A DNA stretch of 64,000 nt from Candidatus Rifleibacteriota bacterium (GTDB lineage Bacteria; Muiribacteriota; Ozemobacteria; Ozemobacterales; Ozemobacteraceae): the NCBI GenBank assembly GCA_051747585.1, contig JBNJGH010000004.1, forward strand, positions 6,852-70,851, given 5' to 3'. The position numbers are program-made. This document shows, piece after piece, positions 15,001-18,000 of this stretch (within the stretch, counting starts at the first letter, position 1; every line of letters begins with the position of its first letter).

Positions 15001-18000
15001 TGGCATAGAAAATTATCTGCGAGGAGTTGTAGGCAGCGAAATGGGCTCTCTATCACCAATGGAATCACTCAAAGCCCAGACCGTTATAGCCAGAACTTAT
15101 GCTTACAGCAATCGTGGAAAACATGGACGCGATGGAGCAGATGTCTGTGATTCGACCCATTGCCAGGTTTACCGTGGGATAAAATCAGAAAGAGATCGAA
15201 TTAACAAAGCAATTGAAGCCACTCGCGGAATTATTATGGTTTCAAACGGCAAAGCAATCGAAACCCTTTATCATGCGACCTGTGGTGGCATGACATCTGA
15301 TAACGACAAAGTCTTTGGTGGCGCTCCCAGAAGTTATTTGCGTAGAGTAATCTGTCCCTTCTGCAAAAAGGGTTCTAAATATCGCTGGGCAAAAAATATA
15401 AATTTGAATAAATTGAAAAAAGAACTTGCCAGAGAACAAATTCGTTTCAACCGCCTCTATGAAATCAGCTACAAATCTCCTGGCTTGATGGATAGAGTAG
15501 AAAAAATTTATCTAATCACAGACAAAGGTCGATTTACAGTCAAAGGCACAACCTTCAGAAGGCTTTTCAAGCTATACAGCACAACGTTTACTCTGGGCAG
15601 CCGCAAAAAAGTCAAAAGCATCATTTCCAAAGCGATAGAAACGCATCCTGAAAAGGTTTTTCACGCAGAAGTCAAGGGTAGAACCTATTTTTCACCTGAT
15701 TATTTCAAGGCGATAAATTCAGGCTTAAAAATTGATGAGGGTCCGCCCCAACTGTTTATTAATTGTCAAAAAGGCTTAAAAAGAGTTGTAAGGCCACAAA
15801 AGGGCTGGAAATTTATTTCTTCGAAACGTCAGATTAATTTGACCGACAACTCAATAAAAAAGGAAAAAAAATTACCCGCCCCAAAAACGAACCGGGTAAA
15901 AGTTATTGAAAAAATAGAAATTTTTGGTCGCGGCTACGGTCACCAGGTTGGTCTTTGTCAGTCTGGTGCAATCGAGATGGGTAAACGAAACTGGTCCTAT
16001 CGTCAGATACTGCCATTCTATTATTCGAACGTCATGCTGCGGCAATTAAAATATTAATTTGCTTCTAAAATTGTTAAAAATTGTATTTATTACTTAAATT
16101 TGTCTAAGAAACAGCCGATACAAAACTGACATTCTATAAATTAACAGCTTTTACGGAATTTATTTCCGGGCTAACCTTGGAGGAAAGAGCTTATGGGTTT
16201 GTTCACCTTCGGGACAAGCAATTCAGCGGTAGGTATCGATATTGGCACCTCAGCTGTCAAAATCGTCCAGCTCAAAAAGACTCCTTCTGGTCCTGAACTG
16301 ATAAACTACGGAATGATGCCGCTACCGCCTGACGCAATGGTGGAAGGTTCGGTCGGCGATCCGCAGTCTGTTGCAGGGGTCATTAAGGATCTACTGAAAT
16401 CACGAAAAATTAAACCGGAACGCAACTTTGCTTCAATTTCCGGGCAGAATGTAATTATGCGCTTCACCAAGCTGCCGGTTATGTCTCCCGAGGAACTTGA
16501 GCAAACAGTTAGAATCGAAGCGGAACAATATGTTCCCTACGCAATTGATGAGGTTAGTATTACCCACGCCGTCTTGAACACCGTAGACGAAGACGAAGAA
16601 GGTGGCGGAAAATATTCGATTCTTCTGGTTGTTGCGCAAAAAGACCTGGTTGCTTCTTACACCGATGTTTTGAAAACATCTGGTGTCACACCTGAAATAA
16701 TGGATGTTGATACGATTGCAGCAATAAATGCACTCGAAAATTCCTACATGCAGACTGCCAGCTCACAGGAAGGCGGCGAAGTTGTAGCCATTATTGATAC
16801 CGGTTCAAGAACCACCAACATATCGGTATTGAAAGCCGGCATTCTCATGTTCACTCGTAACATACCAATAGCAGGCAACAACATTACTGAGATGATCAAA
16901 GAAGTAATGCAGCAGGAATTTGACCAGGCCGAGTCGATTAAAGTCGAAGAAGCCGAAGTGGGTATTGGCGATGTTGGCACCAATGAAATTTCTGAGGTTG
17001 TCAAAACAACTGTTGATGAGCTTGCTTCAGAAATTAGAAGATCATTCGATTACTTTAAAGCACAATCACGAGAGCCTTTGATTCACCGTATTATTCTTTC
17101 AGGTGGCAGCTCAAATCTGAGAAACTTCAATACTTTTCTCAGTAACGAACTGGGGGTTGATGTTTATATGGGTAACCCTCTCGAAGGGGTTGCCGTAACT
17201 GCGCCAGACCCTGATGAGCTTTACGATAATCTTCAACAGTTCACAGTAGCAATCGGCCTTGCTCTTAGAGGGGTGGTGGATGATCTATGATTAGAGTAAA
17301 TCTATTAACGGTTAAACGGCGCAAGCCGATTCAGATACCCTTCGCAGCAATTTTCTTCGTTATCGGTTTGATAGGTATTGGTGGTGGTTTCTACGCAGGA
17401 ACGCTTGCCATTAAAGACTGGAACAAGCCACTGATCGAAGAAAAAAATGAACTGAAAGACGAAATTGCCAGAGAACAATCAAAGCTGGATATCAAAGACT
17501 CACTCAGACAGCAGAAGAACCAGCTCAATTCACAGATTAACCGACTTGAGCAGCTATCAGGTGCTAATCTTCTCCAGTGGTCTCAGGTTTTCAGCGATCT
17601 GACCAATGTTGTTCCCAATGATACTGTCTGGATAACAAATCTGAGAATTGACTCGGATCGAAGAGTTCAGATAGCCGGCTACTCATGCAGTGGTGAAGAC
17701 AATGGCGACCAGAAGGGTGCCAAACTTACCAGAGGTATTCAGGAATTTATAAGACAAATTCAGGGACATGAGCATTTCAATGAAGTTTTTCTCAACAGTG
17801 CAACGAAAAATGTTTATGAAAAGAAGCCGGTCTGGAGATTCGAAATCAACTGTCGCATAACTCGTAACATCAGCGATAGTAGTCTGTGAGGGATAAATTA
17901 AATGAATAACTTTGCAGTAGCAATAATTTTCCTCGTTGTAATAGCAGCCGGCGTTGGTGCTTTCTTTTACTTCGAGTATATGGAACCTCTGGAAAAAGAG

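Follow-up and report, generated by a model that had tools for sequence, protein, structure and literature searches.

The locus considered here lies in a 64,000-nucleotide (nt) stretch of the genome of a Candidatus Rifleibacteriota bacterium of the family Ozemobacteraceae (contig JBNJGH010000004.1, positions 6,852 to 70,851 of the forward strand). The whole stretch, 40.6% guanine plus cytosine (GC), is referred to below as the window. It contains a type IV pilus gene cluster that opens with pilM, and directly 5′ of pilM lies a two-box element resembling the promoters read by sigma-28-family (FliA/SigD/WhiG-type) factors, which are best known from flagellar genes. The element, the leader behind it, and the pil genes are arranged as follows.

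16094–16098, plus strand: −35 element TTAAA, with TAAA at 16095–16098; T16094 and A16096 are invariant throughout the phylum
16099–16113, plus strand: spacer of 15 nt, constant in length and variable in sequence among relatives, with no invariant columns and no register shifts
16114–16121, plus strand: −10 element GCCGATAC (sigma-28 consensus GCCGATAA); CGAT is invariant and the next A nearly so
16127–16129, plus strand: TGA within ACTGAC, the predicted start zone, 6–8 nt past the −10 octamer; invariant in an alignment of 24 sequences
16130–16192, plus strand: 5′ leader with a hairpin (16154–16158 pairing with 16164–16168) and a ribosome-binding site, GGAGGA, at 16179–16184
16193–17290, plus strand: pilM (PF11104, E value 2e-63; TIGR01175, E value 1e-73, above cut-off)
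17287–17889, plus strand: pilN (PF05137), encoding the N-terminus MIRVNLLT
17902–18462, plus strand: pilO (PF04350, E value 3e-12)
18478–19092, plus strand: pilP/GspC-like gene of 204 codons, assigned by position and by a weak T2SSC match (PF11356, E value 0.1, below cut-off)
19117–19166, plus strand: intrinsic terminator, a 10-bp stem GACUGUAUCA/UGAUACAGC followed by U8 (−25.1 kcal/mol, z −5.98)
19599–21008, plus strand: pilQ secretin (PF00263, E value 4e-45, plus Secretin_N and N0 domains)

Read directly from the window, the plus strand at 16093–16130 is cTTAAAtttgtctaagaaacaGCCGATACaaaaCTGAC, within which 16094–16121 resolves into T-TAAA-tttgtctaagaaaca-GCCGATAC. The first-pass annotation of this DNA had placed TAAA, a 15-nt spacer, and a sigma-28-like −10 box at 16095–16121, and this is confirmed on the plus strand, with 71 nt separating the end of GCCGATAC from the pilM ATG at 16193. 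The consensus of FliA, SigD, and WhiG promoters combines a −35 TAAA with a −10 GCCGATAA (PMC8325347). The −10 box of pilM agrees with GCCGATAA at seven of eight positions, and its spacer falls within the 15 (±1) nt that are characteristic between the two sigma-28 boxes. The −35 box at 16095–16102, TAAATTTG, matches 6/8 positions of the extended sigma-28 −35 TAAAGTTT. Altogether the element scores 13 of 16 against the extended E. coli consensus TAAAGTTT-N11-GCCGATAA (PMC8325347).

The same annotation had named sigma-70 elements as the competing possibility; on the plus strand of 15800–16300, no sigma-70-like promoter was found at the scan threshold. A candidate for pilM, TTGTTA...TAAATT, is a loose match that the closest relative (locus L001) does not keep, and it was rejected.

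The first line of evidence that the element is more than an accidental likeness is its frequency and placement in the window. Exact copies of TAAA-N15/16-GCCGATA number four in the 64 kb, compared with 0.06 expected from dinucleotide shuffles, and none of 100 such shuffles reached four; with one mismatch allowed in this motif, 7 and 8 sites were present against about 1.3 expected. Three of the four exact sites lie directly 5′ of a gene on the same strand, namely pilM, the DUF501-flgF operon, and an open reading frame (ORF) for a protein of 278 aa. Similarly, five of the seven plus-strand GCCGATA copies stand directly 5′ of plus-strand genes and are preceded by a TAAA-like −35. The copies outside the pil cluster that are placed as promoters, including those of one mismatch, are the following.

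22342–22370, plus strand: sigma-28-type promoter CTAAA-N16-GCCGATAA of the DUF501-flgF-flgG-flgA-flgH operon; exact-motif match at 22343–22369, conserved in at least 15 relatives
31340–31368, plus strand: sigma-28-type promoter TTAAG-N16-GCCGATAA 5′ of flgI, with one mismatch
35892–35917, plus strand: possible sigma-28-type promoter TGAA-N15-GCCGATA of a gene for a secreted tetratricopeptide repeat (TPR) protein (ATG at 35958), with one mismatch
60395–60421, plus strand: possible sigma-28-type promoter TAAA-N16-GCCGATA, 11 nt 5′ of the ATG of the 278-aa protein

The flagellar genes of this genome thus carry the same motif as pilM, at the flgF operon and at flgI. This bears out the earlier statement that promoters of like architecture precede flgF and flgI, and the match extends to relatives, which keep CCCTAAA-N16-TGCCGATAA 5′ of DUF501-flgF almost unchanged. 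Throughout the loci compared (see below), exact matches are nearly confined to the gene strand and to the positions of pilM and flgF.

The second line of evidence is conservation. A scan of species-representative genomes based on PilM alignment yielded 79 loci, about 46 of which belong to Riflebacteria; the others come from Wallbacteria, Muiribacteriota, UBP16/17-type genomes, genomes labelled Cloacimonadota, and NC10. The top PilM matches, at no more than 92% identity, are Candidatus Riflebacteria/Rifleibacteriota of the family Ozemobacteraceae. An xCGATA box is present 70–94 nt 5′ of the pilM ATG in 43/44 Riflebacteria loci. Measured from the C of CGATA, T-x-A stands precisely 22 nt to the 5′ side in 39 of the 41 non-identical Riflebacteria upstream regions, and TGA precisely 11 nt to the 3′ side in 38 of them. 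The −10 heptamer itself is GTCGATA in 19 of these sequences, GCCGATA in 13, and ACCGATA in 6. In the 24-sequence alignment, the only invariant columns 5′ of the ribosome-binding site are T16094, A16096, CGAT at 16115–16118, and TGA at 16127–16129; the A after CGAT is nearly invariant, the spacer and the region further upstream are variable, and the ribosome-binding site and the pilM ATG are conserved. This register is held across loci that range from 32 to 68% in GC and from 69 to 92% in PilM identity. Judged by alignment, a two-box promoter whose spacer and start site are fixed would leave just such a footprint, and the motif is a phylogenetically conserved, promoter-like element rather than a product of chance. 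The expectation that a genuine promoter would be kept upstream of pilM in relatives has therefore held.

Beyond the Riflebacteria, the architecture persists in related candidate phyla. Muiribacteriota have CTAAG-N15-ACCGATAA upstream of pilM, three UBP17-like genomes have TTAAG-N15-GACGATA, and one further genome has TAAA-N16-GACGATA. In Wallbacteria, pilM abuts spoIID without such a motif, and in the NC10 outgroup it is preceded by a textbook sigma-70 promoter, TTGACA-N17-TAAAT.

The third line of evidence comes from RNA. Salt-lake metatranscriptomes contain sequence identical to the window, and RNA contigs 100% identical to it begin at 16135 (run X1) and 16139 (run X4), just downstream of the element. 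In the eight metatranscriptome runs no contig covers 15724–16134, and spoIID and pilM-N-O are covered in patches. At the promoter of the flgF operon, a contig begins at 22385, 15 nt past the −10 box, and nothing was found upstream of it to 22150. The offsets of 14–18 nt fit a start about 7 nt past the −10 box, within the 6–10 nt usual for sigma-28 promoters, if low depth has shortened the contigs, whose ends are approximate. The flagellar genes DUF501, flgF, flgG, the TPR gene at 32649, and flgJ are weakly present in the same metatranscriptomes; at the candidate promoters of flgI, 35892, and 60395, there was no RNA coverage in any run.

The leader between the predicted start zone and pilM shows a further regularity. 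A hairpin 11–25 nt 5′ of the ribosome-binding site occurs in nearly all Riflebacteria, formed by differing sequences (CGGAA/TTCCG, GTCACG/CGTGAC, GCGCGG/CCGCGC, and others). An Rfam scan of the whole window returned no match, and the pilM leader hence falls in no described RNA family. A MAFFT alignment of 18 leaders gave no consensus structure in RNAalifold, since the alignment does not bring the hairpins into register; folds of single sequences show the hairpin, and the energies of whole leaders are ordinary (mean z −0.66). For these reasons we claim conservation only for the position of the hairpin and not for a structured RNA family.

The extent of the transcript can be judged from the 3′ end of the cluster. 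The 204-aa protein encoded downstream of pilO has a signal-peptide-like N-terminus, no family match at an E value of 0.01 or lower, and no match by sequence in PDB; since its GspC/T2SSC match is weak, it is called PilP-like by position. The terminator at 19117–19166 follows the stop codon of this gene, and the same hairpin and T-run are present in the closest relative, L001. No RNA contig covers 19039–19839. The terminator is followed by a conserved 54-aa ORF and a gap of about 430 nt ahead of what is likely the start of pilQ. That start is probably ATG 19599, not 19452, because GGAGG and ATGAATTCC are conserved there and the alignments of relatives begin at residues 30–48. In view of the strong terminator, pilQ is probably transcribed separately, and transcription from the promoter at 16094–16121 most likely takes in pilM-N-O and the pilP-like gene and stops short of pilQ. 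The operon pilMNOP(Q) of the first-pass annotation is accordingly retained up to the pilP-like gene and probably loses pilQ; the terminator argues against a single operon running from pilM to pilQ.

Several observations concern the region 5′ of pilQ. The first 49 codons of the ORF as read from 19452 are probably noncoding, and 19500–19598 resembles a copy, now decayed, of the pilP-like gene's 3′ end; its counterpart in high-GC relatives is a coding C-terminus (...KVVDI...) that directly abuts pilQ. The sequence at 19515–19534, GTCGATAA-N5-CTGATAG, resembles the −10/+1 module of pilM. In at least nine relatives, a TTAA-type −35 (TTAAAG in several) stands in register upstream of pilQ, and in the window a TTAAT box is displaced about 11 nt upstream. 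On this basis, pilQ may have a sigma-28-type promoter of its own at this module. A different candidate for the window, GGTCGATAA directly 5′ of the ORF start at 19452, was rejected because it has no −35 in register.

Two further features concern the surroundings of the pil cluster. A prepilin-type gene (MKKLKTGFTLIELMIV...) is encoded on the minus strand at 39768–40127 (N_methyl, E value 4e-9); it has an extended −10, TGTATAAT, about 20 nt 5′ of its ATG and, unlike pilM, looks sigma-70-driven. Upstream of pilM, two SpoIID-domain genes flank a MiaB-like gene and queH (10943–16057). The adjacency of spoIID and pilM is kept far beyond Riflebacteria, in Wallbacteria and UBP17-like genomes, and the arrangement spoIID-pilMNOPQ-aroC reaches lineages as distant as NC10. 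The adjacency suggests that pilus assembly is functionally linked to a cell-wall lytic transglycosylase-type protein.

The flagellar region deserves some additional remarks. The start of DUF501 in the ORF list, 22357, overlaps the −10 box of its promoter; the start is likely TTG 22396, behind the putative ribosome-binding site AGGGAGAGG. With this start, DUF501 (22396–22944) is the first operon gene behind a sigma-28-type promoter in most Riflebacteria loci, which makes its product a candidate for an uncharacterised flagellar protein. The region 35892–37037, in which a secreted TPR gene lies behind TGAA-N15-GCCGATA, has a counterpart in a rumen Riflebacteria genome (L036, 11833–13086) with CTAAA-N16-TGCCGATAA. 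Other TPR genes (28823 and 32649) are interleaved with flgI and flgJ. The matches of the TPR proteins to the PilW and FlcA models are weak and below cut-offs, and the proteins may be periplasmic scaffold proteins of the flagellum or the pilus.

Downstream of flgH, and ahead of a carbamoyltransferase-SxtJ-TPR/GDSL gene group, several CGATA boxes (TTCGATA, GTCGATA, CCCGATA, ACCGATA) cluster at 26295–26365, and TTTAAT...CCCGATAC among them (26318–26347) is in sigma-28 register. The gene group itself is located between flgH and flgI and might modify a flagellar component. The fourth exact TAAA-N15-GCCGATA of the window (27054–27079, minus strand) lies within the carbamoyltransferase gene in antisense orientation; it could be a chance match or an antisense promoter. 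The 278-aa protein behind the site at 60395 is membrane-bound or secreted; the stretch 60395–60436, with the site and the start of the gene, has no ribosome-binding site, and a transcript from this site would be nearly leaderless. Finally, two neighbouring lgt paralogues (prolipoprotein diacylglyceryl transferase) follow lspA at 55900–57447.

Taken together, the element at 16094–16121 is, in our opinion, a conserved sigma-28-family promoter of the pilM-N-O-pilP-like operon, a reading to which we assign a probability of about 0.72. According to this model, RNA polymerase carrying a factor of the FliA/SigD/WhiG type would read it as a core promoter, with sigma region 4 contacting the TTAAA box and region 2 contacting the GCCGATAC box. 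The start would fall in the invariant ACTGA at about 16127–16130, some 7 nt past the −10 box; the transcript would have a leader of about 65 nt carrying the hairpin and the strong GGAGGA ribosome-binding site, and would end at the terminator at 19117–19166. A promoter of the same kind, nearer to consensus, would drive the rod/L-ring operon (DUF501-flgF-G-A-H) and flgI. We infer a factor of the FliA family because consensus-grade sigma-28 boxes are conserved 5′ of flagellar operons. Given the shared kind of promoter, the genes of the pilus platform and those of the flagellar basal body would vary together with the activity of the sigma factor; a single alternative sigma factor probably serves both pili and flagella.

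Several observations weigh against this interpretation. No gene for a FliA/WhiG-type sigma factor or for FlgM was found in the window or in the 79 loci; the only sigma gene of the window, at 51073–52089 on the minus strand, is RpoD-like, and a tblastn search of all 79 loci with a sigma-70-family query gave no match. In most relatives the pilM element, with TCAGG or TCAGA as −35 and GTCGATA or ACCGATA as −10, is less consensus-like than the flagellar promoter found in that genome. The known determinants of sigma-28 promoters do not include an invariant TGA at a fixed distance, implying that more than a plain sigma-28 promoter is under selection. The RNA contigs are assembled, strandless, and of depth 2–8, with approximate ends, and may include carried-over DNA. 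Moreover, no terminator was found in 15800–16300, that is, none between spoIID and pilM, so some read-through from spoIID is possible.

The first-pass annotation went further and proposed a single sigma-28 programme for pilus and flagellum. Its core, a motif shared between pilM and the flagellar operons, stands; the sigma gene was not found, and the pilin-like gene has a sigma-70-type extended −10, which means that not all pilus genes are visibly part of such a programme. The accompanying idea of a predatory phase is pure speculation.

The best of the other explanations accepts that the element is a promoter and holds that the flagellar sigma factor alone does not account for it: a sigma-28 paralogue dedicated to the pilus, or a second regulator at ACTGA, would place pili under separate control, their genes resembling the flagellar ones in promoter type. 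The main ground for keeping this explanation is the lesser consensus character of the pilM element, which differs systematically from the flagellar promoters of the same genome (for example, CTCAGA...ACCGATAG at pilM vs CCCTAAAG...TGCCGATAA at flgF in loci L012–L015). It is also favoured by the TGA at +11, which is invariant at pilM and which the flgF and flgI promoters lack, and by the recurrence of a similar module, GTCGAT(A/G)-N4–5-CTGA, 5′ of pilQ. A precedent exists in Actinoplanes, which has four FliA paralogues (PMC13595943). Nevertheless, the pilM promoters of the window and its closest clade (L005–L009, L017) are near-consensus, and high-GC lineages such as L019 have the same GTCGATA at both pilM and flgF. 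Separate control is, on this balance, rather unlikely.

We consider it distinctly improbable that the conserved block is no promoter at all and serves instead as a transcription-factor site or as an RNA element of a spoIID-pilM transcript, its likeness to sigma-28 promoters being coincidental. The missing terminator between spoIID and pilM, the motif-free Wallbacteria in which pilM directly follows spoIID, and the conserved leader hairpin would all suit such an element. The blocks, however, match both sigma-28 boxes at canonical spacing around a variable spacer, the same architecture recurs at flagellar operons, no RNA contig crosses the block, and Rfam offers no match.

Still less probable is the possibility that PilM, PilN, and PilO here are not pilus parts but a scaffold of the flagellar motor. 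In Campylobacterota, the PilMNO homologues FcpMNO form a flagellar cage; their operon, located downstream of miaB, depends on neither FliA nor RpoN (PMC11870540). The likeness is real in that PilM/N/O-type genes are found near flagellar genes with a MiaB-like gene upstream: the latter is two genes away, flagellar basal-body genes are no more than 6 kb distant, and genes for numerous periplasmic TPR proteins occur among the flg genes. Yet FcpMNO, reported only from Campylobacterota and not FliA-dependent, come without a secretin and without pilins (PMC11870540), whereas the Riflebacteria cluster includes PilQ, has a pilin-like gene nearby, and has an aro neighbour, as an ordinary pilMNOPQ cluster does.

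With PilM, PilN, PilO, and a full secretin all encoded, the cluster thus has the composition of a pilus system rather than that of a PilMNO set lacking a secretin and other pilus genes. The N-terminus of PilN, MIRVNLLT, resembles the INLLP-type PilM-binding motif. The prepilin-type gene in the window and the pilMNOPQ-aro linkage, which extends to NC10, likewise speak for pilus parts. A chance match in AT-rich intergenic DNA, where at 40.6% GC a TAAA is common, is refuted by the strict phylum-wide conservation and is at odds with four exact sites against 0.06 expected.

In the literature, we found nothing relevant on motility, pili, sigma factors, or promoters of Riflebacteria. A sigma-28-family promoter wired to pilus genes is already known in kind; the novelty lies in its occurrence in this phylum and in a diderm flagellate, and in its phylum-wide conservation jointly with sigma-28-type promoters on rod and ring genes. 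The principal use of the result lies in the annotation of this uncultured group and in predicting its physiology, and the understanding of sigma-28 itself is unchanged. The pattern T-x-A, N19, CGATA should be serviceable for regulon prediction in Riflebacteria genomes.

Compared with well-studied flagellar systems, the pilM element shares its boxes and spacing with the FliA class 3 promoters of E. coli and Salmonella and the SigD promoters of B. subtilis (TAAA-N15-GCCGATAA/T). Like FliA and SigD promoters, it is located less than 100 nt from a start codon and its motif recurs at flagellar genes of the same genome. Unlike the situation in enterobacteria, where the rod and ring genes flgF, flgG, flgH, and flgI belong to class 2, the motif in the window is found at these genes and at a pilus operon. 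The wiring therefore differs from the enterobacterial hierarchy, a promoter of the flagellar sigma type being placed at rod/ring genes and at the pilus platform. The first-pass annotation had remarked that pilMNOPQ operons are not usually FliA-controlled, and in the enterobacterial and Pseudomonas models they are not known to belong to the FliA regulon; as a general statement it is overstated, pilus control by sigma-28-family factors being documented in Rubrobacter and reported for Actinoplanes (PMC8325347, PMC13595943), and a broad FliA regulon being known in Bdellovibrio (PMC3627812). An effect of opposite sign is known from Acidithiobacillus caldus, in which deletion of rpoF raised the expression of pil-annotated genes, termed type IV secretion/type IV pili genes by the authors (PMC6543871).

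A parallel of another sort is offered by Bdellovibrio bacteriovorus, in which a FliA-type attack-phase motif, TTAAG-N16-CCGATA, is found in 92/140 attack-phase promoters (PMC3627812). Rewritten as TTAAA-N16-CCGATA, the pilM element is of the Bdellovibrio style, and in both organisms the motif reaches beyond late flagellar genes. The Bdellovibrio motif rests on start sites mapped genome-wide and on a life-cycle switch, and the window has about 5–6 candidate sites in 64 kb, recognised from sequence. By analogy with the Bdellovibrio attack phase, one might speculate, though we regard this as doubtful, that the sigma-28-family factor of Riflebacteria, and perhaps of Muiribacteriota, is a broad surface-appendage sigma factor rather than a late flagellar one. 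Its targets would comprise early basal-body operons, the pilus platform, secreted TPR proteins, and envelope proteins, and a pilus-specific layer (ACTGA at +1 and the leader hairpin) would be added to it. If true, this would suggest that the uncultured phylum has a distinct cell state, motile or attaching.

The closest functional precedent is Rubrobacter. In R. radiotolerans and R. xylanophilus, WhiG promoters with mapped start sites are located inside type IV pilus clusters (PMC8325347), and sigma-28-family control of pili has been predicted for other Actinomycetota and, in the case of Actinoplanes, is reported as confirmed (PMC8325347, PMC13595943). As in the window, the sigma-28-family consensus lies directly 5′ of pil operons. 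Rubrobacter is a Gram-positive-type actinobacterium whose sigma factor is held by the c-di-GMP-armed anti-sigma factor RsiG (PMC8325347); Riflebacteria, in contrast, are diderms with L and P rings, and their motif is also present at flagellar genes. The pilM promoter described here would thereby add a diderm, flagellated case to the few known instances in which a sigma-28-family factor controls type IV pili.

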